Source: an uncultured Bacilli bacterium | GTDB lineage: Bacteria > Bacillota_I > Bacilli_A > RF39 > UBA660 | Length of the DNA stretch: 34,742 nucleotides | Assembly: GCA_947631365.1 (NCBI GenBank) | Contig: CANRLB010000001.1 | Location: 1-34,742, forward strand | Direction of reading: 5' to 3' | Shown here: one piece after another, positions 1,714 through 34,742 of the stretch | Layout: each line of letters opens with the position of its first letter | Position numbering within the stretch: position 1 is the stretch's first letter | Program-made: the position numbers and the translations under genes | The notes under the pieces: model-generated | The model's database searches: none | Told to the model about the DNA's origin: nothing | What the model saw: only the letters and a program-made list of their open reading frames with translations

Positions 1714-3176
1714 TCCATCATCTCTCCATACATTTCAAACATTGGGACTACTACGGCAATTAATATGCCTCCAACAACTAAAGCTAAAAATGCAATTAAC
1801 ATTGGTTCTATCAAAGTTTTGAGATTTTTAACAATACTTTTATGTAAGCTTTGATAATAAATGCTTATCCTTTCCATCATTTCAGCTAACTCACCCGTTG
1901 ATTCGCCAGTTGTAATCATAAAATAACATACTTCAGGAACAGCCCAGTGATCTTTAAAAGCCGTAGATATTTTTTCGCCTTTAGTAACATTATCATAAGT
2001 TTTTAAAAGGACTTCTTTATAAACTTCATTATTAGTAATTTTACTTAAAATATCCATACTATCTGTAATAAAAACATTATTTTTTAAAAGAGAAGCAAAG
2101 GTCTTAGTAATTATAGCCAGTTCATTATAAATAATTATATTTTTTATAACAGGTAAATGCATTAAAATAGTTTGAATAAATTTTTTAAAAGTTCTACTAT
2201 TTTTATAAAAAATAATAAATAATATCACCATAATAATAATTGTGAATAAGAAATTTAAAATATTTTGTTCAAAATAGGAGCTTAAATTAATAACAAATTG
2301 CGTAAAAGAATTAAGTTCCATATTACTAGAATTATAAGTCTTAACAAATTCAGGAATAATAAAAGTCAAAATAAAAATTATAACTCCCAAAGCAAAAACA
2401 CTAACAATTGCAGGATAGGTTAAAGCATTTATGGTATCACGTCTTGTTTCATCTATTTCTTTATAATAATTTGCTAAATCTTTTAAAGTTTCAATCAAAG
2501 TACCACTTGTTTCACTAGCTTTTACCATATTAATAAATAAAGGGGGAAACATATCATCTAGTTTAGATAAAGCAGTAGAAAATGATGATCCTAAAGATAT
2601 TTCAAAAGATAAAGTTTTGAAAACTTTTTTTAAATTATTCCCTTTCATTTGTCTTCCTAATATTTTAAGAGCATCATTTAAAGGTAATCCTGATTCTAAA
2701 TAGGTTGATAACTGAGTTAAGAAAAAAACTAAATCTTTGGGTTTTAAATGATTACTTCCAATATCGGTATTTAATATATTAATTAATGAACTAGTTTTAA
2801 TACTATAAACGGTATAGCCTTCATTTATTAAAAAAGAATTAATATCTAATTTACTATAACCTTTCATTTTTCCTTTTTTAATTTTACCATCTTTTCCTCG
2901 AACTTTATAATAATAAGTATTAATTTTTTTACTTCTAGTGGCTCCTTCTGTTTTTAAATCTTCCATTAATTCTTCATATTCTTGATTTAATTTAATTAAT
3001 TTTTTAGGGCTATAATTATATTTCTTTTTACTTTTTTCCTTTAAAAATAATTTTTTTAGGGGTATAATTGTACATACTTTAAGGCCTAGAATTGCATAGG
3101 AAAAAATAGAGATAATGACATTTAAAATATTATCTAGAAAATTAAAAATAAAATTTTTATTTTGATTATTCTCCAT
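1710..3176 (-). CDS. pilC: Type IV pilus / T2SS platform protein (GspF/PilC family) with an N-terminal extension
   Basis: Two GspF-type repeats and three C-terminal-type TM segments. The canonical N-terminal start (YYYKVRGKDGKIKKGKMKGYS...) begins only near residue 87. Confidence 0.9.
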   Translation of the reverse strand: MENNQNKNFIFNFLDNILNVIISIFSYAILGLKVCTIIPLKKLFLKEKSKKKYNYSPKKLIKLNQEYEELMEDLKTEGATRSKKINTYYYKVRGKDGKIKKGKMKGYSKLDINSFLINEGYTVYSIKTSSLINILNTDIGSNHLKPKDLVFFLTQLSTYLESGLPLNDALKILGRQMKGNNLKKVFKTLSFEISLGSSFSTALSKLDDMFPPLFINMVKASETSGTLIETLKDLANYYKEIDETRRDTINALTYPAIVSVFALGVIIFILTFIIPEFVKTYNSSNMELNSFTQFVINLSSYFEQNILNFLFTIIIMVILFIIFYKNSRTFKKFIQTILMHLPVIKNIIIYNELAIITKTFASLLKNNVFITDSMDILSKITNNEVYKEVLLKTYDNVTKGEKISTAFKDHWAVPEVCYFMITTGESTGELAEMMERISIYYQSLHKSIVKNLKTLIEPMLIAFLALVVGGILIAVVVPMFEMYGEMME

Positions 3177-3316
3177 ATATTCCCTTTACTCTTATTCTTC
3201 TTAAATTATATCATAAAGGAAATTTAAAAGAAAGAATAATTATTAAGTAGTGATCTTTTTATAACATATTAGACAATTAAGAAAAAAAATTGCATAAAAT
3301 ATTATAGGTGGTTTAG

Positions 3317-3604
3317 ATGTTTGGACCAAGACTTGGGGGAGGTTTATCTTTAACAAGAGTTATTGGAGGTATCTCTAAGACCTTAAATGTGGTAAATCAA
3401 GTAATCCCTTTATACAAAGAAGCTAAGCCTTTAGTAAATAATGCCAGAAATGCCATTAATTTACTTAAAGATATTAGTAAAACTACTACAAAAAGAGTAA
3501 TTGAGAATACTAATAAAAATATTGGACCAATTAAAGAAAAAATGCAAAATATTACAAATATAAGTAATATTTCTAGTGAAAAAGGACCTACTTTTTTTCA
3601 ATAA
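3317..3604 (+). CDS. YqfQ/VrrA-like small protein
   Basis: AGGTGG SD. The glycine-rich N-terminus and the VNQVIPLYKEAKPLVNN block resemble B. subtilis YqfQ, which also lies near trmK and sigA. Confidence 0.45.
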   Translation: MFGPRLGGGLSLTRVIGGISKTLNVVNQVIPLYKEAKPLVNNARNAINLLKDISKTTTKRVIENTNKNIGPIKEKMQNITNISNISSEKGPTFFQ

Positions 3605-24843: not shown

Positions 24844-25527
24844 TCAAATTTTCATAATATTTTGAAGTCTTTTAATAATCTTTTTTTCAATCCTAGAAAT
24901 ATACGATTGACTTATACCAAGCATTTCCGCTACTTCTTTTTGAGTATATTCTTCACTATTATTAAGGCCATATCTTAAAGTCATAATTTCTTTTTCTCTT
25001 GGATCTAGAGTATCGATTTCTTTTTTTAAAAGTTCTTTATCTAAAACATTTTCAAATTCTTTTGGAACAGTATCTTCATCAGTTCCTAAGATATCTTCAA
25101 GCCTTAGTTCATTACCCTCAGCATCATAATTTAATGTTTCTTCTAGACTAACTTCTGCTTTTTTACGTTTATTTTTTCTTAAAAACATTAATATTTCATT
25201 AGCAATACATCTAGATGCATAGGTAGCTAGTTTAATATTTTTATCAATTTTATAGGTAGTAATTCCTTTAATTAAGCCAATGGAACCAATAGACACTAAA
25301 TCTTCAATATCAAAGCCAGTATTTTCATATTTTTTAGCTAAAAAAACTACTAAACGTAAATTATGCTCTATTAAGATGTTGCGGGCTTCAAGATCACCTT
25401 GTTTAGATTTAATTAAATATTCTAGTTCTTGTTCTTTAGGAAGAGGTGGTGGTAATTTATCGGTAGCTCCCACAAAGAAACATTCACTATACTTCTTTTT
25501 TAAATATAAAAATAATTTTTTAAACAT
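24844..25527 (-). CDS. sigE: Pro-sigma-E sporulation sigma factor
   Basis: Pro-sequence followed by the LPPPLPKEQE signature. ATG overlaps the spoIIGA stop (TAATG). Confidence 0.92.
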   Translation of the reverse strand: MFKKLFLYLKKKYSECFFVGATDKLPPPLPKEQELEYLIKSKQGDLEARNILIEHNLRLVVFLAKKYENTGFDIEDLVSIGSIGLIKGITTYKIDKNIKLATYASRCIANEILMFLRKNKRKKAEVSLEETLNYDAEGNELRLEDILGTDEDTVPKEFENVLDKELLKKEIDTLDPREKEIMTLRYGLNNSEEYTQKEVAEMLGISQSYISRIEKKIIKRLQNIMKI

Positions 25528-26273
25528 TATTCCTCCAATAAATGATAATTAAGTAAACAATCAATATCAGAACTATTAAAAGTATCAGATAATCCTAATA
25601 AATAATTGGTATATACTCTATTATCTATCTTAATATTTTTAATACTAATACATGGAAGCAAACTATTCTTATTAACAGTTTTAATGGGCACATACATTGG
25701 ACTTCTAATATTATATATGCCCTTAACTAATTTTTTATTTATTAAAATAATATATTTACCAGTTATAGGGTCTTTTAACTTATTACCACTATCAATAAAA
25801 CCATTTAAATTTAATTCTTGATTATTTTTAAAAGTTATAATAACATTACGATAATAATTAACTACTTTTTTAAGATTTTTTTGTTCTTTAAGATATAAAT
25901 AGAGAATTAAAGGAGCAATTAATAAACTAATAATATAACATAAATTATTAAATTCAATTTTTAAAAAATATAAGAAACCGGCTAAAATTACACTAGTCAT
26001 ATATAAATACAAACTATTATTAATAAAGTATTTAAAATTTTTATAAGAGAAAGTTACTATTAACATTATAATACCCATCAATATTTTTAAAAGTAATAGT
26101 AAATATTTATTGACAGGGATAAAAATAATAAATGTTGATAAGGCCCCAACTAAACTTCCAAAGATTAGCCTTTTAAGAGAAGTGTTTCTTTTTAAAGTTA
26201 AACTAACAGTAACTAATATTAAAAAATCATAAATAAAATTGAGTAAAAATAATAAATCAATATAAATTTTCAT
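25527..26273 (-). CDS. spoIIGA: Sigma-E processing aspartic peptidase SpoIIGA
   Basis: MKIYIDLLFLLNF N-terminus, 5 TM, GFIDSGNKLKDPITG active-site motif. Start at 26273 with a GGGTGA SD, whereas the ORF track starts at 26312. Confidence 0.88.
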   Translation of the reverse strand: MKIYIDLLFLLNFIYDFLILVTVSLTLKRNTSLKRLIFGSLVGALSTFIIFIPVNKYLLLLLKILMGIIMLIVTFSYKNFKYFINNSLYLYMTSVILAGFLYFLKIEFNNLCYIISLLIAPLILYLYLKEQKNLKKVVNYYRNVIITFKNNQELNLNGFIDSGNKLKDPITGKYIILINKKLVKGIYNIRSPMYVPIKTVNKNSLLPCISIKNIKIDNRVYTNYLLGLSDTFNSSDIDCLLNYHLLEE

Positions 26274-26296
26274 TATATCACCCAACTTTATTATAT

Positions 26297-26325
26297 AAAA
26301 AAAATACGACAAAATTTGTCGTATT
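26297..26325 (-). terminator. ftsZ intrinsic terminator (palindrome AATACGAC...GTCGTATT plus T6)
   Basis: 8-bp arms at 26303-26310 and 26318-26325, T-run at 26297-26302 on the minus strand, immediately upstream of a TATAAT at 26290-26295. Confidence 0.6.
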
Positions 26326-26336
26326 ATAGTACTTAA

Positions 26337-27395
26337 TTAAAATAAATCATTATTTCTTAAAAATGGAGGTATTTCTAAGTCATCATCAGTTGGTACCGTA
26401 GTTCTTCTTTTAGGAGCATCATCAGCGCCATAAATTTCACCTTCACTACTTTCATCAAATCCCGTAGCAATAACGGTAACAATAACTTCATCAGTTAAAT
26501 TATCATTTTTAATAGCCCCAAAGATAATGTTAATATCACTCTTAGCAGCTTCTCTAACAGTTTCTACAGCATCTTCAATTTCAAATAAGGTAAGGTTTTT
26601 ACCACCTGTAACATTAACGATAGCATTAGTAGCCCCATCAATAGTAGCTTCTAGTAAACTATTTGCAACTGCTTGTCTAGCCGCTTCAACTGCTCGGTTT
26701 TCACCAGCATTGCAACCAATACCAATAATGGCTGTACCACTTTTTTCCATAACAGCTTTAACATCAGCAAAGTCTAGGTTAATAACGCCCGTAACAGCAA
26801 TTAAATCAGAAATTGATTGAACACCGCGGTGTAAAACATTATCTACTTCTTTAAAGGCATCATCAAATGAAGTGGTTTTATCAATAATATCTCTTAATTT
26901 ATCATTTGGAATAACAATTAAGGTATCAACATGTTTTTTTAGTTCTTCAATTCCAACTAAGGCATTTTCACTTCTTCTTTTGCCTTCAAACCGGAATGGT
27001 TTCGTAACAATACCAACTGTTAAGGCTCCAAGTTCTTGAGCAATTTCCGCAATAATAGGAGCAGCACCTGTACCAGTTCCACCACCCATACCACAAGCAA
27101 CGAAAACCATATCTGCTCCTTTAAGAGCATCTTCAATTTCGCCTTTACTTTCTAAAGCAGCGGCTCTTCCTATTTCCGGATTTGCACCAGCACCTCTTCC
27201 ACCAGTAATTGATTTACCAATTTGAATTTTATTTTGGGCTTTAGAAATATTTAAAACTTGTAAGTCCGTATTAACAACATAAAATTCAACGCTTTTTACT
27301 CCTTCTTCAATCATACGATTAACGGCATTACATCCACCGCCGCCAACACCAATAACTTTTATTTTGGCAATTTGATCCATTTGTAATTCGTTCAT
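26337..27395 (-). CDS. ftsZ: Cell division GTPase FtsZ
   Basis: GGGTGTG tubulin signature and a C-terminal [11 protein letters not shown] peptide. Confidence 0.98.
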
Positions 27396-27407
27396 ATTTT
27401 CATCTCC

Positions 27408-28649
27408 TTAATTATCAAAAAAATATCCAAATAATTTACCAAGAAGGGATTTATCAGAAACATTAATTCTTTTATCTGTTCCTCCCAATTCTTCTTGTTC
27501 TTCTAAATTAAATATTGAAAATTCAACATTTCTTAATTTTAAACGACTATTATAATACTTAATCATTCCAACAGCAGTGGCATATTTATTATTGCGAGCA
27601 CCGATTTCTTCAACACTACCAATAATTCCTTTATTACCAAATAATTCTTCAACGAGGATATCAAAGTCACCACTTTCTGTTACTCCTCCTGTAAGTATTA
27701 TATAACTTATTTCTTTCTTTGTTAAGAGATTTATTTGTTTTTTTGCTAAATTAATAATCTCTGTTAGTCTTCCCATTACTATTTCTGAAGCATCATATTC
27801 ATTAATTTTAACATTTTCATCATATTTATCTTTAAAAGATAATGACTCATTCGGTTGAGCAAGCCTTGTATGAGCAAGAGCTAAATGTTCTTTAACATAT
27901 TTAGCATTTTCCATACTTATTTTATAAACATAAGCTAAATCACTGGTAATAGATGAGCCACCAATATCAATAACTTCTAAATTAGTAAGAATTCCGCGAT
28001 TAAAGATGGAGACTGTTGTTGTTTCTTCACCAATATTGATAACTGCCCCAATTTCTTTATTACTATCTTTTGTTTTATGTTCATAATAATCTCCTAAAGG
28101 GCTTATAACAATATCAACAAGTTCGACCCCAATATTCTTAAGACAAATACTTAATCCTTCCATATTTTTCTTTGGAACTGTAACGATGATAGCTTTCATA
28201 GATAATTTTTCAGAAATCATATTTAAAGGATTATTGACTACTTCATCATTAATAATAAAACTTGTTGGTAAAACTGTTACTAGTTCTCTATGATCCATAA
28301 CTTTGTTATAAACACATTTTTGCATAGCTTTAACAATATCAGCATTTCTTATTACTTTATCTTCACTTGTAGTAGCTATTGTGCCACTAGCTAAAGTACA
28401 TTCGGTATAATGACTAGGAACCGTCGCAATAACTTTTTTAATCTTTATGCCAATTATATTTTCGGCACTTTTAAATGTTTCATTTAATGCTTCAGTAGCG
28501 CTCTCCGGATTAATAATATACCCTTTTTTAATACCTCTTGCAGGAGTTTCAACACATGCTAAAATATTGACTTTATTTTTGACGATTTCACCAACAACTA
28601 ATTTAATAAGTGATGATCCAATATCTAAACTAGCAATGAACTTACGCAT
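27408..28649 (-). CDS. ftsA: Cell division protein FtsA
   Basis: Actin-fold motifs (LDIGSS..., GGVTE). Start at 28649 with an AGGAGTG SD and the promoter just upstream. The ORF track starts at 28706. Confidence 0.93.
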   Translation of the reverse strand: MRKFIASLDIGSSLIKLVVGEIVKNKVNILACVETPARGIKKGYIINPESATEALNETFKSAENIIGIKIKKVIATVPSHYTECTLASGTIATTSEDKVIRNADIVKAMQKCVYNKVMDHRELVTVLPTSFIINDEVVNNPLNMISEKLSMKAIIVTVPKKNMEGLSICLKNIGVELVDIVISPLGDYYEHKTKDSNKEIGAVINIGEETTTVSIFNRGILTNLEVIDIGGSSITSDLAYVYKISMENAKYVKEHLALAHTRLAQPNESLSFKDKYDENVKINEYDASEIVMGRLTEIINLAKKQINLLTKKEISYIILTGGVTESGDFDILVEELFGNKGIIGSVEEIGARNNKYATAVGMIKYYNSRLKLRNVEFSIFNLEEQEELGGTDKRINVSDKSLLGKLFGYFFDN

Positions 28650-28677
28650 AATTGTCACTCCTATTTTCCTAACCTTA

Positions 28678-28706
28678 ATTATACAGAAAAAAAGATTCAT
28701 TGACAA
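28678..28706 (-). promoter_or_regulatory. Sigma-A-type promoter directly upstream of ftsA (TTGTCA-17-TATAAT)
   Basis: -35 at 28701-28706 and -10 at 28678-28683 on the minus strand. Confidence 0.45.
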
Positions 28707-28752
28707 GTTATTTCCTTTAACTTAATAATGAATCTTTTATTTTTATTTATAA

Positions 28753-29469
28753 TTATCTTGATAATTTTAAATATTCTGATTTTTCTTCTATAGTTCCATC
28801 TGGTTTATTTTCTATATAACTAGAACGGTAACCATAACCATCTAGAGCAATACTTTCTTCTGCTATTTTAATATATACTACTCCATTAATAATTTTATAG
28901 TTTTCATCATCTTCAAAAGAACTGGAATCAATTTTTGCAATTCTTTTCTTTACCCCAACAAGATTGCCATCTTTATCTCTACCTATAGTATAGCCTTCAG
29001 GTACAGTATAATAAACTTTACCATCTACTTCATTTTTAATTGGTTCAGTGTATTTATAAGCTACCCAATATTGACGGCCTACTTCATCAGTAAATAATTC
29101 ATAATTCTCTGGTACATTAAAGGCTGCCGACGGAGCATAAACTTCTCTTACTGGCTCATTTCCATCAAATTCAGTATATTGAACATCAGCAATAATACCT
29201 TCGGATGCATAAGTACCAATCATTGCATTTTTTTGGTGATTAATGGCAGCCTCTTTGGGAAGAATTTTAGCAAAAGGACATTCATTTTTTGTATGATCAA
29301 ATGCTTGGTCACAAATTTCAGCCACTGTTATAGTGCCTCCTAATAAGCCTAATAATATTGCTAAACTCACTAGAGTTTTTTGAACCTTATCAAGTTTATC
29401 TTCTTTATTTTCTTTTGTTTGATTTTCTTCATTTAATTCTAAATCTTTTTTTTCATCTTTATTTTTCAT
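28753..29469 (-). CDS. Bitopic membrane protein, uncharacterised (acidic or charged N-terminal tail, one TM, beta-rich extracytoplasmic domain)
   Basis: GGGGGA SD. TM segment LVSLAILLGLLGGTITVA. Internal repeat (F/Y)xVPExY (AFNVPENYEL and YYTVPEGYTI). Confidence 0.8.
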   Translation of the reverse strand: MKNKDEKKDLELNEENQTKENKEDKLDKVQKTLVSLAILLGLLGGTITVAEICDQAFDHTKNECPFAKILPKEAAINHQKNAMIGTYASEGIIADVQYTEFDGNEPVREVYAPSAAFNVPENYELFTDEVGRQYWVAYKYTEPIKNEVDGKVYYTVPEGYTIGRDKDGNLVGVKKRIAKIDSSSFEDDENYKIINGVVYIKIAEESIALDGYGYRSSYIENKPDGTIEEKSEYLKLSR

Positions 29470-29491
29470 TTTGAATCCCCCAAAATTTTAA

Positions 29492-29562
29492 TAAATATAA
29501 TAGTTTAAAGCCGTTGTCAATAAAAAATATAGCATGTTCTTACATACTTGTCAATAATTGAC
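29492..29562 (-). promoter_or_regulatory. Tandem sigma-A-type promoters with a palindromic operator-like site upstream of the 238-aa gene
   Basis: Distal promoter is TTGACA (29549-29554)-17-TATATT (29526-29531). The proximal TTGACA (29515-29520) has a weaker -10. The palindrome GTCAATAATTGAC lies at 29550-29562. Confidence 0.5.
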
Positions 29563-29636
29563 GTTTTTTACTATTTTGAGCTTTAATAATTATTTAGATA
29601 ATCTTTAGTAATTTGATTTTTCTTCTATTATGATGA

Positions 29637-29921
29637 TTATTTCTTTTTAAAACATTTTCGTATACGTTGCCTTTTGCCATATGATTCTGGTACTTGGACT
29701 TTTTGATATTCACTATCTACACTTTGCGATTCGTCCATTTCTGTTAAATTTTCATATTTACTTAATACTTCATGAGTTCTACTTGGATCATATTTAAAAT
29801 CATTTAATAAATGTTCTATAGTTTCACTATTAGTTGTTCCATAAGAACTTTTTCTAGAAGTTATAGTATCTTGATTTGATATTTTCTTCTTGCTAATATC
29901 TAATTTATATAATTTATTCAT
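29637..29921 (-). CDS. 94-aa hydrophilic protein with a basic C-terminal tail, uncharacterised
   Basis: GAGAGGA SD. It is the last gene of the orphan operon. Confidence 0.65.
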   Translation of the reverse strand: MNKLYKLDISKKKISNQDTITSRKSSYGTTNSETIEHLLNDFKYDPSRTHEVLSKYENLTEMDESQSVDSEYQKVQVPESYGKRQRIRKCFKKK

Positions 29922-29946
29922 CGTATAAAAATCCTCTCTATTTGTT

Positions 29947-30738
29947 TTATTTTAATAAAAATTCTTTTATTTTCTTTAATTCTTCATCATTAAATAAATA
30001 AGTAATATCTTTGCCCCTTCTAATAATTTCATTAATAAAATCTTTATCATTAGTTTCCTTAACTTTTTTAAGTAAATGTTCCATATCTAAATCTTCTTCA
30101 ACAGCACTTACAAGTTCTTCTAAATAATAGGCATCCCTTTTTAAAATAAAATAATCAACTATTTTAGTAAAATCTTTATTTTTATTATTGTAATTAAAGG
30201 CAAGACGCCACAATGCTTCTCTTTTATCCTCTTCTATTCCTACCATCACTAAATCATCAAACTCACTTTGGGTTAAAGCAGGTGTTATTGGAACTGAAAT
30301 ATATTCGGTTATAAATTCAAGCATTTCTTTATTACTCATTTTATCAAAATATTTATTAATTAATTCATTATTATCTAATAGATCTACTACAGTATCATAA
30401 AGCTTGCCACCATCCTTAACTACATTCTTATCTTTTTCTAGGCTATCTTTTTCCCTTTTAATAAAATCTAGGCCTTCATCATCTAAACTTTTATAAATAT
30501 TATCATCATTTAATGCATTCAATAATTTATCAATTTCTTTTAAACGTTTCTTTTCTATTTCATCAATTTCATTAGGTATTTCTTTAATTATTTTTTCTAA
30601 ATCTTTAATTAACTCTTTTATTTTTACTATTTCATCTTCACTATATTTTGCTAAATCAATTTGCTTTAAACTAGCAAGTAGTTCTTTACTATTAATAAAT
30701 TTATTTATATATTTATATAATAATTTAACTAAATCCAT
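29947..30738 (-). CDS. Acidic all-helical-looking protein of about 263 aa, uncharacterised
   Basis: ATG at 30738 is preferred over the ORF-track TTG at 30750. Rich in E/K/D/L. No motif recognised. Confidence 0.75.
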   Translation of the reverse strand: MDLVKLLYKYINKFINSKELLASLKQIDLAKYSEDEIVKIKELIKDLEKIIKEIPNEIDEIEKKRLKEIDKLLNALNDDNIYKSLDDEGLDFIKREKDSLEKDKNVVKDGGKLYDTVVDLLDNNELINKYFDKMSNKEMLEFITEYISVPITPALTQSEFDDLVMVGIEEDKREALWRLAFNYNNKNKDFTKIVDYFILKRDAYYLEELVSAVEEDLDMEHLLKKVKETNDKDFINEIIRRGKDITYLFNDEELKKIKEFLLK

Positions 30739-30757
30739 ATGAGCTTTCAATCCTTAC

Positions 30758-31972
30758 TTATTTCATATATCTTACAAAATCGCCAAGTCTTCTTTCTACT
30801 TGTTGATTTGTTCCTAATAACTCATCCATTGGAATATTAAATGTATCTTTTATTTCATCAATTAAGTTTTCTACTAATAAGGCAATATTACCATTTTGCA
30901 TAATATTTAATAAATAATCATAAGTAACATTTTTTAAAGATTTAGATTGAATATTTAGATTATCTTTTTCATGCGTATTTATATAATTTATTAACTCGGT
31001 AATAATCCTTTGATTTTGATAATTATCAAACAAGTCTATATTATGAAGTGCAATTATAATTTTCTCAAAATCATCACGAGTCAATTGTCCCTTATTTTCA
31101 GAGAAAATACAAAAATCAAATACTGGAATTAAAAAGCCTAATTGTCTTCGACTTTTATAAATAATATGGATTTGGTCATCATCTTTGAATATTTGGATTT
31201 TATCTGTAAGATTACCAAAATAAATTTTGGACGTATGTTGGGTGTCAGCAGCTTCTCTTACTTCATAATAGCTGTCCGCTGTTTTTAAACTTTCTGCTAT
31301 TTTCTTGAGTGTTTCATTATTTTTGGGTGTTAATTGACCATTTAAAAGAATTACGCCTTCATCAGGGCAATAATTTCGAGAAGAATAGGTATAAATTGAT
31401 GAATTATCTACTTCATAAAGATTTATTTCTTTGGTTGGGAAAAAATCTAAAGTACTTGGGCGATTGCCTAATAAAAGCTTATGCATATTCTGTGCTTTAT
31501 CATAAATAATGGCAAAAATAGTGCTCTCTTCATAACTAGATAAAGGTTCCCAAATATCATCATAATTAGAAGAAAAAAGATTGATGGTTCTTTTTAAATT
31601 ATCTTCTTCTAGGTAAAAGCAAAACTTGCCATGTTTAGTATCGACATTTGCCCAAGCCCTTTTTCTTACAACTTCGCCTTTTAAATCATCTAATTTTAAG
31701 TAATCTTTCTTTATTTTAGAATTATAATCAATTTCTTCATTATTAAAAGTAACCGTGGTATTATAATCCATGTTATCATCCGCCGGAATACCGCTGTAAA
31801 AAACGATTTTTTCTCCAGTACTTTGATTAACAAATGTAATTGACTTAAAATTAGATTGACTATCAACATAGGAGTCAGTTATTTGGATATTACTCGCTTC
31901 TTCTAAAGTAACATCAAGACCATATTTCTTTAAAATTTCTTGCTTTTTTTGACTAATATTTCTCTTTTCCAT
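30758..31972 (-). CDS. 404-aa uncharacterised protein, paralog 2 of the tandem pair
   Basis: AGAGGG SD. Shares blocks with the upstream gene (R.WANVDTKHGKFC, SKIYFG, TRDDFEKII and the C-terminal helical module). Confidence 0.85.
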   Translation of the reverse strand: MEKRNISQKKQEILKKYGLDVTLEEASNIQITDSYVDSQSNFKSITFVNQSTGEKIVFYSGIPADDNMDYNTTVTFNNEEIDYNSKIKKDYLKLDDLKGEVVRKRAWANVDTKHGKFCFYLEEDNLKRTINLFSSNYDDIWEPLSSYEESTIFAIIYDKAQNMHKLLLGNRPSTLDFFPTKEINLYEVDNSSIYTYSSRNYCPDEGVILLNGQLTPKNNETLKKIAESLKTADSYYEVREAADTQHTSKIYFGNLTDKIQIFKDDDQIHIIYKSRRQLGFLIPVFDFCIFSENKGQLTRDDFEKIIIALHNIDLFDNYQNQRIITELINYINTHEKDNLNIQSKSLKNVTYDYLLNIMQNGNIALLVENLIDEIKDTFNIPMDELLGTNQQVERRLGDFVRYMK

Positions 31973-31982
31973 AAAGTACCCT

Positions 31983-33227
31983 CTATTTGTTAATTTTTCT
32001 AGCTAAACCTTTTTCTACTTCTTTTTTTCCTATTAAATTACTTGTAGAGATACTAAAAGTTTCAGACATATTTTCAATTAACTTTTCAACAAATTCAGTT
32101 AAATTGCTTTTTTCAATTATTTCTTTTAATTCTTGATAAGAAACATTCGCTAGTGTATTAGTTAAAGTATTAAAATCACTAGTATGAACATTAATATATG
32201 TAACTAATTCCGTAATAAAACTTTCTTTTAATTCCTTATCAATATCCATTAATTCTAAAGAAGCTATTATTTTTTCAAAATCATCTTTAGTAAATTTACC
32301 ATCAGTTAAAGAGATGATATTTACAGTTTCTTTTTCTTCTTTTTTATGTTTTCTTCTATTTAAGATATTATAAATGACTTTTATTTCATAACCATTTTTT
32401 AAAACAACAATAGTATCAGCAGCACCATAATAAATTTTAGAAGATACTTGCTCTTTTTCATATTCATCTACTTCTAAATTGGCAAAACAATCCGGCAAAA
32501 AATGTCTAATATTAGCTGTTTTAATATTACCATCTAAAATAACTGCTCCTCTAAAACCTAAACTATCAGCATAATCACCAATACAATAAATTGAACCATC
32601 ATCTGCACTTTTTTTTACGTCTTTCTCAAATAATGTGCCAAAATTCCAGATATTTCGTCTTGGATTTTGAAATATGTTATCAACATAACCATAAAGCCAT
32701 TGATTAAAATCACCAGCAGACGAATATTTAAACTTTAAAACGCCAAAATATGGATAGGCGTATTCAAAATAAGGATTATTAAGCTTATCATTATCATGAG
32801 TTACATTATATAAAGTAAGATCACGATGTGGTCCAAAGTTTAAATTAGAAAACTGTTCATTTGCTTCTAAACAATAAGTTCCATACTTAGTGGTAACATC
32901 GGCATAACATCGAGAATATAATAAATTATTTTCTCTTAAGTCACTAATCTTTTTAGTAACTTCAATATAATCTACGGAGCTAGTTACACTATAATATTCT
33001 TCTTCAATAATCCCAGTCGTAAGATTCTCTTTTTTAAAACAAATGGCATTTTTCTTAAAATATTGTCTAAAGCCAAATGATCTTTTTAAAGTATAAAGAC
33101 AATTATTCTCTTTATCTAAATACTTTACTTTGCCATCTCTTTCTAAAATAAATTTAAGATCTTCTCTTGACATCTTAAAAATTTCGCCAAAATCATTAAA
33201 ATTATTAGTTTTTTGTTCTTTTTCCAT
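31983..33227 (-). CDS. 414-aa uncharacterised protein, paralog 1 of the tandem pair
   Basis: AAGAGGAG SD. An extended -10 (TGTTATAAT) lies at 33252-33260. Confidence 0.85.
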   Translation of the reverse strand: MEKEQKTNNFNDFGEIFKMSREDLKFILERDGKVKYLDKENNCLYTLKRSFGFRQYFKKNAICFKKENLTTGIIEEEYYSVTSSVDYIEVTKKISDLRENNLLYSRCYADVTTKYGTYCLEANEQFSNLNFGPHRDLTLYNVTHDNDKLNNPYFEYAYPYFGVLKFKYSSAGDFNQWLYGYVDNIFQNPRRNIWNFGTLFEKDVKKSADDGSIYCIGDYADSLGFRGAVILDGNIKTANIRHFLPDCFANLEVDEYEKEQVSSKIYYGAADTIVVLKNGYEIKVIYNILNRRKHKKEEKETVNIISLTDGKFTKDDFEKIIASLELMDIDKELKESFITELVTYINVHTSDFNTLTNTLANVSYQELKEIIEKSNLTEFVEKLIENMSETFSISTSNLIGKKEVEKGLARKINK

Positions 33228-33277
33228 AATTTTCTCCTCTTATAGTTTTCTATTATAACATAAGAAAAAAATAATTA

Positions 33278-33808
33278 CTATCTTAAATTCTCTAGTAATT
33301 CTTCTTTTTTCATAGTACTATAACCTTTAATACCTGCTTCTTTAGCCATTGCTTTTAATTCAGTTAAAGTTTTAGTACTTAAATCTTCTTTTTTAGTAGT
33401 TTTTTTAGTTTCTTTTACTTCTTCTTTTACAGTTTTTGGAGCACTTACTTTACCATTTAGGGCATCATTTGCTACTTTAACAAGTTCTGTAAAAGATTTT
33501 GGATCGTTAATTGCTATTTCAGATAACATTTTACGATTAATTGTAATACCAGCTTTATTTAAACCAGCAATAAATTTAGAATAGCTGATATCATTCATAC
33601 GACATGCTGCATTAATTCTTGTAATCCATAATTTACGGAAGTTTCTTTTATTTTGTCTTCTATCTCTAAAAGCATAAGCTCCACTATGGAATAATTGTTC
33701 TTGAGCAGTCTTATATAATCTATGTTTACTACCAAAATAACCTTTTGCTTGTTTTAAAACTTTACGTCTTCTATTTTTTGATACGTTTCCGCCTTTAACT
33801 CTTGCCAT
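33278..33808 (-). CDS. rplT: Ribosomal protein L20 with a C-terminal extension of about 57 aa
   Basis: The canonical L20 sequence covers about the first 119 residues. This is followed by a lysine-rich linker and [28 protein letters not shown]. Confidence 0.95.
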
Positions 33809-33823
33809 TTTTCTTCCCCCTCA

Positions 33824-34012
33824 CTAGATAACAGATTTTAATCTGCTAGCTTCTCCTTTCGCTAAAACTCCTTTATTTCTTCTTTGGCGTACAGCTTTTG
33901 AAGAATCTTTACTTGTTTTATGATTACCATTACCTTTTTTATAAGTAAGGGTACCATTCTTCTTTACTTTAAGCACTTTACTACTTGCTTTATGTGTTTT
34001 TTGTTTTCCCAT
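33824..34012 (-). CDS. rpmI: Ribosomal protein L35
   Basis: MGKQKTHKASSK... basic 62-aa protein between infC and rplT. Confidence 0.93.
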   Translation of the reverse strand: MGKQKTHKASSKVLKVKKNGTLTYKKGNGNHKTSKDSSKAVRQRRNKGVLAKGEASRLKSVI

Positions 34013-34033
34013 AATTAATTCTCCTTCTACTAC

Positions 34034-34555
34034 TTATTTTTTAGGTGCTATTAGCATAGACATTTGTCTACCTTCTAATTTCGGTTCAGCTTCAATTTGA
34101 CCAAATTCAGCTAAACTTTCAGCAAACTTTAATAAGACATCTTTGCCTAATTCGGTATGGGCCATTTCACGGCCTTTAAATCTAATAAAGGCTTTGATTT
34201 TGTGGCCTTTTTTTAAATAATCGCTCGCATTTTTAACTCTTGTTTCAAAATCATGGACATCAATTCTAACTGATAAGCGATATTCTTTGATATCTTTATT
34301 ACTTTCTCTTTGTTTCTTTTGCGTTTCTTTTAACTTTTTTTGTCTTTCATAACGATATTTATTATAATCCATTATTTTAGCTACCGCTGGTGTACTATTT
34401 TCGCTCATTAAAACTAGATCAAGTCCAGCATATGATGCAAGGGTTAGAGCATCTTCAATTTTTTTGACACCCATCTTTTCCCCATTTGGTCCAATTACCA
34501 TAAGTTCTGCTACTCTAATTTGTTCATTAATAGGTAGCTCTTCTGTTTTTGCTAT
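34034..34555 (-). CDS. infC: Translation initiation factor IF-3 (non-canonical ATA start)
   Basis: IF3 N- and C-terminal domains are present. A GGAGGTG SD (34562-34568) lies 6 nt upstream of the ATA at 34553-34555. The ORF-track TTG at 34570 lies within or upstream of the SD. Confidence 0.9.
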   Translation of the reverse strand: MAKTEELPINEQIRVAELMVIGPNGEKMGVKKIEDALTLASYAGLDLVLMSENSTPAVAKIMDYNKYRYERQKKLKETQKKQRESNKDIKEYRLSVRIDVHDFETRVKNASDYLKKGHKIKAFIRFKGREMAHTELGKDVLLKFAESLAEFGQIEAEPKLEGRQMSMLIAPKK

Positions 34556-34573
34556 ACAAAGCACCTCCAATAA

Positions 34574-34601
34574 TTAAAAAGTGAGTATAATCTATACCCA
34601 C
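34574..34601 (-). terminator. Leader attenuator (terminator) immediately upstream of the infC SD
   Basis: GTGGGTATA-gat-TATACTCAC (34581-34601) followed by TTTTT (34576-34580) on the minus strand. Confidence 0.6.
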
Positions 34602-34695
34602 TATAAAACCATATTAATAAATAATTATTTTTATCGGCTTTTTACCCATTACTATGGTAATCGGGTGGATATAAATCGCTTTCCTTTTTAACAAC
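34602..34695 (-). ncRNA. Probable L20-leader-type 5' regulatory RNA of the infC-rpmI-rplT operon
   Basis: Bulged hairpin ACCCGATTAC-cata-GTAATGGGT (34644-34666). Upstream TATATCCAC (34665-34673) can pair with the terminator 5' arm GTGGGTATA and act as an antiterminator. The position matches the Firmicute L20 leader. Confidence 0.5.
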
Positions 34696-34701
34696 ATCAA
34701 T

Positions 34702-34731
34702 ATCTTAACACTATAATATATGAATTGTCAA
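34702..34731 (-). promoter_or_regulatory. Sigma-A promoter of the infC operon (TTGACA-18-TAAGAT with extended TG)
   Basis: -35 at 34726-34731 and TGtTAAGAT at 34702-34710 on the minus strand. Confidence 0.5.
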
Positions 34732-34742
34732 GCATTTTATGC

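Follow-up and report, generated by a model that had tools for sequence, protein, structure and literature searches.

Four orphan genes and a membrane protein gene between rplT and ftsA

The window analyzed here, that is the whole stretch of 34,742 nucleotides (nt) studied, belongs to contig CANRLB010000001.1 (assembly GCA_947631365.1) of an uncultured Bacilli bacterium, and this study deals with a block of four open reading frames (ORF1 to ORF4) that lies between the genes infC-rpmI-rplT and the cluster ftsA-ftsZ-spoIIGA-sigE-sigG. A first-pass annotation made from the letters of the window had described four co-oriented minus-strand genes for proteins of 414, 404, about 263 and 94 amino acids (aa) at this place, and both the genes and their flanks were found as described, the flanking genes being identified by Pfam-annotated relatives that are 78-100% identical. 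All genes of the locus are encoded on the minus strand, where infC (34034-34570), rpmI (33824-34012) and rplT (33278-33808) are followed by ORF1 (31983-33227; 414 aa), ORF2 (30758-31972; 404 aa), ORF3 (29947-30738; 263 aa) and ORF4 (29637-29921; 94 aa), the latter four with the coordinates of the ORF listing. Two features go beyond the earlier description, namely the paralogy of ORF1 and ORF2 and the presence of a fifth gene, TM238 (28753-29469, minus), which encodes a single-pass membrane protein of 238 aa, separates ORF4 from ftsA, and has ftsA, ftsZ, spoIIGA, sigE and sigG (minus) downstream of it.

For ORF3, a TTG codon would provide an alternative start (29947-30750; 267 aa), but since every homologue starts with MDLV, the ATG at 30738 is the true start. 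The gaps between the genes therefore amount to 10 nt (ORF1/ORF2), 19 nt (ORF2/ORF3; 7 nt with the TTG start) and 25 nt (ORF3/ORF4), and Shine-Dalgarno-like motifs (GAGGAG, GAGGG, AAGGA, GAGAGGA) can be read in the sequence, so that the spacing and the individual ribosome-binding sites noted before are borne out. An ATG-initiated ORF of at least 94 aa is expected 0.235 times per shuffled 34.7-kb window, and the lengths of ORF1-4 are not expected by chance in DNA of 25% GC. The block has a GC content of 0.254, compared to 0.252 for the window, and its codon frequencies correlate with those of the other genes at 0.79-0.94; its composition is native, as had been estimated by eye when the block was judged not to be an obvious import. 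In a KD19 hydrophobicity scan, no hydrophobic segment was found in any of the four proteins (top score below 1), in accordance with the earlier view of a cytoplasmic module, and all four are taken to be soluble.

The gene content of the slot varies among sister species

Close relatives of the window are metagenome-assembled genomes (MAGs) of uncultured rabbit-gut Bacilli (Lapin isolates), whose loci are labelled L019 (Lapin-026 bin104), L017 (Lapin-010 bin27), L011 (GCA_947629465.1) and, for other rabbit-gut relatives, L001/L021 and L022. The order in the window is rplT-ORF1-ORF2-ORF3-ORF4-TM238-ftsA. Lapin-027 bin20 has rplT-ORF1-ORF2-ORF3-TM238-ftsA and Lapin-007 bin28, whose contig begins within ORF1, has ORF1-ORF2-ORF3-TM238-ftsA, both without ORF4. 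Two membrane protein genes are present in L019 (ORF1-ORF2-ORF3-TM238b-TM238-ftsA), two ORF1-type genes are present in L017 (ORF1a-ORF1b-ORF2-ORF3, then a Mur-ligase paralogue), and L011 contains rplT, one ORF1/2-type gene and ftsA, with nothing more. Two ORF1/2-type genes along with ORF3 are found in the window, L001, L019 and L022. Among sister species, the slot thus holds one to three ORF1/2-type genes, ORF3 or no ORF3, and zero to two TM238-type genes. In L011, FtsA and FtsZ are 86 and 97% identical to their counterparts in the window, yet the lone ORF1/2-type product shares just 38% identity with ORF1 and 29% with ORF2.

ORF1/2-type genes and ORF3 occur together only in five closely related rabbit-gut species, the window's own and those of four Lapin MAGs. 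Because ORF4 is restricted to a single species, and because ORF3 and distant ORF1/2 relatives are found in separate contexts, the four genes do not form a conserved unit. The proposal of a self-contained four-gene module is therefore not supported, and without a conserved system of four genes the block does not deserve priority as a candidate for an undescribed system.

ORF1 and ORF2 belong to a very rare family

When ORF1 was compared with ORF2 by BLASTP, 28% identity over 335 residues was obtained (E 6e-24), and the similarity peaks in the C-terminal third, where the motifs FT(K/R)DDFEKII and ITEL..YIN.H are located. ORF1 and ORF2 are tandem paralogues of a very rare, new family, for which a word-indexed search of 5.8 billion clusters yielded 12 clusters, and 44 members were recovered when 1.84 billion representatives were searched exhaustively with a profile. 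The AlphaFold2 (AF2) model of ORF1 (predicted local distance difference test, pLDDT, 84.4; predicted template modelling score, pTM, 0.84) contains about 20 strands in residues 33-305, arranged in long beta hairpins, and a helical bundle formed by residues 314-404. Both proteins are beta-rich in their N-terminal two-thirds, and about 90 residues at the C terminus form a helical bundle.

Four of the 44 family members (P0135, P0148, P0154 and P0160) are 900-965 aa long and carry the family domain at the C terminus, behind an N-terminal extension of about 600 residues that is 39-50% identical among them. A reading of these long proteins as Rosetta-stone fusions was rejected, as Pfam, NCBIfam and PADLOC recognized no domain in the extension and it showed no relationship to ORF3. 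Five distant relatives of ORF1/2 each occur as single genes in contexts unrelated to the window locus; such contexts are a place between genes for a peptidase C1 (pepC-like) and a metallophosphatase, a place adjoining HD_3 and DUF2000 genes, a place between rpmB and dnaE, and a place upstream of ExoIII and MutY genes.

ORF3 belongs to a widespread family with its own contexts

The ORF3 family comprises at least 727 clusters, about 50% identical and without a Pfam domain in any of them; it includes a protein of 'Firmicutes bacterium CAG:460' and many human-gut contigs, and is widespread in gut Bacilli. ORF3 was modelled by AF2 as an all-alpha protein of 16 helices (pLDDT 92.6), and an hhalign probability of 0.2% with ORF1/2 indicates that the two families are unrelated. 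No ORF1/2-type gene was found within 8 kb at any of 80 metagenomic loci of the ORF3 family. The neighbourhoods of ORF3 homologues (ORF3h) fall into at least eight syntenic classes without a common partner, among them rplS-lepB-ORF3h, ORF3h-metallophosphatase, spoIVB-x-spoIIM-ORF3h-mnmA-NrtR and an integrative mobilisable element, and clustering of the neighbours across ORF3 loci revealed no shared partner either. The candidate of a conserved downstream partner was discarded, as the proteins of 224-245 aa encoded downstream elsewhere show no relationship to the 238-aa protein of the window.

One homologue, P0094, which is listed in 298 blocks of the collection, sits in loci L006 and L007 (3460-9313) in a string composed of genes for a serine recombinase, a Mob_Pre relaxase, a metallo-beta-lactamase-fold protein that matches Anti-Pycsar Apyc1, the ORF3 homologue and a NUDIX protein. 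This string is inserted in two different chromosomal contexts and seems to be an integrative mobilisable element that is widespread among human-gut Bacilli. In L019, the ORF3 homologue (2577-3365) has an in-frame stop at codon 199 (DYFI*KKDAYY, compared to DYFILKRDAYY in the window) and an otherwise intact frame, the stop being due either to a genuine nonsense mutation or to a fault in the assembly.

ORF2 and ORF3 are conserved and ORF1 diverges in its beta-rich part

The ratio of nonsynonymous to synonymous divergence (dN/dS) was calculated by pairwise NG86 for the window genes and their relatives. Values of 0.13-0.19 were obtained for ORF2, 0.13-0.21 for ORF3, 0.33-0.49 for ORF1 and 0.20-0.55 for TM238, along with 0.10-0.13 for ftsA and 0.03 for ftsZ. 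As dN/dS values of 0.13-0.49 signify purifying selection, ORF1-3 are functional coding genes. Orthologues of ORF2 are 90-93% identical, those of ORF1 67-75%, compared to 86-89% for FtsA and 96-97% for FtsZ. The degree of conservation of ORF2 is similar to that of the housekeeping flanks, and ORF1 evolves several times faster, with the excess of change in its beta-rich part: dN/dS is 0.4-0.7 for residues 1-230 and 0.1-0.25 for the C-terminal residues 306-414. Positive selection on ORF1 was considered and dismissed, since no window of 30 codons had a dN/dS above 1, so that the data speak for a relaxed constraint on the beta-rich part and do not demonstrate positive or diversifying selection.

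When window positions 24844-33808 were compared with L019, L021 and L022, dS amounted to 0.2-0.45 for rplT and ORF1-3, versus 0.6-0.75 for ftsA, ftsZ and sigE in the same pairs of genomes. This break could stem from recent recombination of the left part or from a bias of NG86 at extreme AT content.

Neither family matches known sequences or folds

Scans of ORF1-4 and of the neighbouring 238-aa protein with Pfam, NCBIfam, PHROGs and PADLOC gave only noise; with PADLOC, ORF3 and ORF4 reached sub-threshold scores of 16 and 15 bits, and nothing was obtained for ORF1, ORF2 or 10 distant family members. Pfam scans of individual members (38 of ORF1/2 and 54 of ORF3) gave isolated matches in one or two members each. 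Searches of Protein Data Bank (PDB) chains with single sequences and with profiles gave nothing below E 0.18. The description of the four proteins as free of known domains holds in all these searches, which revealed no known catalytic, nucleotide-binding or DNA-binding signature, and the lack of hydrophobic segments fits with it.

The structural check proposed along with that description was made with Foldseek on the models of ORF1 and ORF3, and it placed neither protein in a well-characterized family, as no convincing match was found in the PDB. For ORF1, the single PDB match below E 0.001 was 4ghb_B (E 3.4e-4), with a template modelling (TM) score of 0.12-0.17; for ORF3, the best E value was 0.22 and no TM score exceeded 0.38 (TMq at most 0.33). 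In the BFVD database, the best match of ORF1 was A0A1L2CUE0, an uncharacterized jumbo-phage protein of Pectobacterium phage vB_PcaM_CBB (E 2.6e-5, TM 0.23/0.30), and further matches were MORN-repeat proteins of giant viruses with E values of 3.5e-3 to 0.17 and TM scores of only 0.17-0.31; the root mean square deviations of these BFVD neighbours were 14-18 Å. MORN and other beta-hairpin-repeat proteins consist, like ORF1, largely of long beta hairpins; however, ORF1/2 proteins carry the additional conserved C-terminal helical bundle. ORF1 was not accepted as a MORN-repeat protein: given that there is no MORN match in Pfam and no internal repeat in a self-alignment of the profile, the likeness is one of beta-hairpin style only. 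Alpha-helical repeat scaffolds (the TPR-like RRNPP regulators NprR/Rap, 14-3-3 proteins, designed helical repeats) are all-helical like ORF3 and are among its weak top PDB matches, but none of the 54 ORF3 members has a TPR or HEAT match in Pfam, and ORF3 lacks a helix-turn-helix or peptide-binding signature. As both families are without a known counterpart in sequence or structure, the locus fits no known kind.

The ORF1/2 and ORF3 families had no match in phage, plasmid and IMG/VR collections, the tRNA search of the window found none, and no flanking or boundary repeats, integrase or other mobile-element edges were found at the locus. The locus is not cargo of a prophage, an integrative element or a plasmid. 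An Rfam scan of 28000-34742 gave no family match at E 0.1 or better.

Predicted promoters delimit the block

An extended -10 element, TGTTATAAT, can be read at 33252-33260 (minus), 25 nt upstream of the start of ORF1, as first annotated, and is a predicted promoter whose -35 region is poor. L021, in front of its ORF1-type gene, and the single-gene locus L011 retain the motif TG(T/C)TATAAT, which is thus conserved in three species including that of the window. At its other end, the block stops at a strong sigma-A-type promoter of the 238-aa gene, again in line with the first annotation; this promoter (TTGACA-17-TATATT with an upstream TG; 29526-29554, minus) has 11 of 12 matches, is also conserved in L001 and sets the downstream limit of ORF1-4. 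From rplT to this promoter, a search of the minus strand found no terminator-like hairpin, and the spacer between ORF4 and TM238 showed only weak predicted folding (z -2.0). The absence of such a site inside the block, the short gaps of 10-25 nt and the conserved extended -10 lend indirect support to the operon postulated in the first-pass annotation, in which ORF1-ORF4 would share one transcript. A perfect palindrome (GTCAAT-T-ATTGAC; 29550-29562, minus) overlaps the -35 hexamer of the strong promoter, with a second TTGACA about 30 nt downstream of it, and may be an operator site.

A native, variable slot as the favoured explanation

We tentatively favour, at just short of an even chance, the explanation that the locus is a native, lineage-restricted, variable slot between rplT and ftsA which holds independent orphan genes for non-catalytic binding proteins. 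This assessment draws mostly on the architectural and evolutionary statements; the mechanism taken by itself is somewhat unlikely. According to this mechanism, ORF1-3 would encode soluble proteins that serve in binding or as adaptors without catalysis and that are made during growth from the conserved extended -10 promoter and from transcripts reading through from the rplT operon. ORF1-type and ORF2-type proteins might associate via their common conserved C-terminal helical domain, and their diverging beta domains might confer different binding specificities, while ORF3 would be a separate helical scaffold that was put beside ORF1/2 in this clade. No enzymatic step is proposed.

Several points weigh against this explanation. 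The order ORF1-ORF2-ORF3 is kept in all five ORF3-bearing species, even with the different downstream flank of L017, and therefore leaves room for a functional link between both families in this clade. The presumed C-terminal association and non-catalytic role derive entirely from the conservation pattern and from the absence of motifs, and an absence of known motifs would also be compatible with a new enzyme. Also, a remote relationship beyond the reach of sequence and profile searches and of Foldseek comparisons with PDB and BFVD may have been missed.

A different explanation is that the orphan proteins are lineage-specific accessory factors of division or sporulation, acting on FtsA/FtsZ or on the early sporulation machinery, and that they are positional analogues of the genes which precede ftsA in Firmicutes. 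In the division and cell wall (dcw) cluster of Bacillus subtilis, divIB, ylxW, ylxX and sbp precede ftsA-ftsZ-(bpr)-spoIIGA-sigE-sigG, and the small genes before ftsA have the same position and orientation as the orphan block of the window. Wherever the flank is known in the clade, an ORF1/2-type gene lies directly upstream of ftsA or of TM238-ftsA in the same orientation, the single-gene locus L011 being reduced to rplT-X-ftsA; moreover, the conservation of ORF2 and ORF3 equals that of housekeeping genes, and one context class of ORF3 homologues adjoins spoIVB and spoIIM. However, the upstream neighbours are mur genes in B. subtilis and the rplT operon here, the content of the block varies among sister species, and Pfam and NCBIfam gave no match of ORF1-4 or the 238-aa protein to dcw division families (FtsQ/DivIB/POTRA, DUF881, SepF, Sbp). 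Linkage to ftsA is confined to the rabbit-gut clade, given that ftsA is lacking from the other contexts of both families, five for ORF1/2 and at least eight for ORF3; the neighbours of distant ORF1/2 relatives are dnaE, pepC-like, HD, ExoIII and MutY genes and in no case ftsA, genes for division or sporulation do not adjoin most ORF3 homologues, and in L017 the block is followed by the Mur-ligase paralogue instead of ftsA. The promoter appears to be of the sigma-A type and not sporulation-specific, and ORF1-type proteins that differ by 62% where FtsA differs by 14% are hard to square with a conserved partner. We consider such a role in division or sporulation unlikely.

In the most far-reaching reading, ORF1/2 would represent a new fold class of two-domain cytoplasmic recognition proteins, with a fast-diverging beta domain and a conserved helical domain for assembly, kept at a fixed place beside the division genes. 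They would serve as a new type of conflict sensor or as lineage-specific regulators of FtsA/FtsZ in uncultured, spore-forming gut Bacilli, with ORF3 as clade-specific partner; this reading seems distinctly unlikely as well.

The block might also be a new conflict system, for defence against phages or mobile elements or as an immunity array, in which the ORF1 type would provide variable sensors, and ORF2 and ORF3 would be their conserved partners. Variable hot spots between core genes resemble the window slot in that a fixed place has a content, copy number and sequence that shift among relatives, and here the slot changes in copy number and by gain and loss of genes between conserved core genes. 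The N-terminal part of ORF1 evolves fast next to a conserved C-terminal domain, the ORF1-type protein encoded in L011 reaches just 36-38% identity although the flanks are nearly identical, and one ORF3 homologue is located on an integrative mobilisable element, others near a HipA/Bro-N/RhuM island. Unlike hot spots with defence or accessory genes, however, the window slot has no mobility genes or known defence domains, no integrase, tRNA or flanking repeat and a native composition, and its ORF2 and ORF3 are under purifying selection as strong as that of core genes. There is no PADLOC match, and by Pfam and NCBIfam no effector domain (nuclease, NTPase, TIR, Sir2, protease or membrane-disrupting segment) was found in ORF1-4 or in the 38 and 54 family members, nor any toxin or antitoxin domain in the five genes (ORF1-4 and TM238). 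The tandem paralogues of about 400 aa also differ from the small immunity proteins of polymorphic-toxin immunity arrays. Furthermore, ORF1 has no 30-codon window with a dN/dS above 1, distant homologues occur singly among housekeeping genes and not in defence islands, and the families are absent from the phage, plasmid and IMG/VR collections. A conflict system is thus highly doubtful.

That the block is decaying or non-functional sequence, made up of pseudogenes or spurious ORFs in an AT-rich MAG, is very improbable and tenable for ORF4 only, which has no homologue elsewhere and lies beside a gene relic; the stop at codon 199 in the ORF3 homologue of L019 and the low coverage of the MAG assemblies from which the contigs come would fit, but ORF1-3 are intact in several species with dN/dS values of 0.13-0.49, the AF2 models of ORF1 and ORF3 are confident, and chance ORFs of such length are unexpected at 25% GC.

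With regard to the favoured variable slot, the gene-neighbourhood check proposed in the first-pass annotation thus gave a limited unit, ORF1/2 and ORF3 in five close species, and not the four genes. Orphan clusters of restricted taxonomic range are numerous in MAGs, and the locus is, as one of them, a modest curiosity, whose value lies in two apparently new folds, a large unannotated ORF3 family and a plastic slot flanked by near-identical core genes. Its newness consists in the fact that nothing known matches, by which a new mechanism is not demonstrated. If either orphan family had a defined role, one or two new protein folds or families would be gained, the ORF3 family alone accounting for more than 700 clusters without annotation in human and animal gut Bacilli, and the plasticity of the slot between rplT and ftsA would be explained in a lineage in which these genes are otherwise 86-97% identical.

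ORF4 and TM238

Apart from an identical copy on a second contig from the species of the window, ORF4 has no detectable relative. ORF4 is absent from L001/L021, L019, L022 and L017, where the spacers between ORF3 and the next gene are about 100 nt long or filled by another gene, and it had no match in phage, plasmid and PDB collections. The encoded protein is basic and hydrophilic (isoelectric point 9.3; grand average of hydropathy -1.27). At 29583-29628 (minus), 8 nt downstream of the ORF4 stop, there is a relic of 46 nt of the 3' end of a TM238-type gene (direct repeat D2), which shares 83% identity with the 3' end of the 238-aa gene at 28746-28791 and which also aligns with the 3' ends of both TM238 copies of L019. 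ORF4 occupies the position that is the slot of the second TM238 copy in Lapin-026. That ORF4 is what remains of a TM238 paralogue after a frameshift was rejected, as its body does not resemble TM238 genes at the DNA level (z about 0). Since ORF4 is unique, adjoins a TM238 relic and has a body unlike TM238 genes, we regard it as a young, species-specific ORF of doubtful function.

The TM238 protein has one hydrophobic segment (KD19 2.09 at residue 32) and no match in a Pfam scan. One copy of its gene is present in the window, in L001 and in L022, two are present in L019 (3479-4195 and 4366-5082; 58% and 80% identical) and none in L011, and TM238 is also absent downstream of the ORF3 homologue in L017. 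TM238 is part of the same variable segment as ORF1-4. Upstream of ftsA, it occupies the place expected for DivIB/FtsQ.

The infC-rpmI-rplT flank

A terminator-like hairpin with a T-run is located at 34580-34602 (minus), 10 nt upstream of the annotated infC start, and may be an L20-type leader attenuator or the terminator of the upstream gene. RplT (L20; 33278-33808, minus) carries a C-terminal extension of about 50 residues that is annotated as Rho_N (PF07498) in relatives which are 89-92% identical, and this Rho_N-type extension is an unusual fusion for L20.

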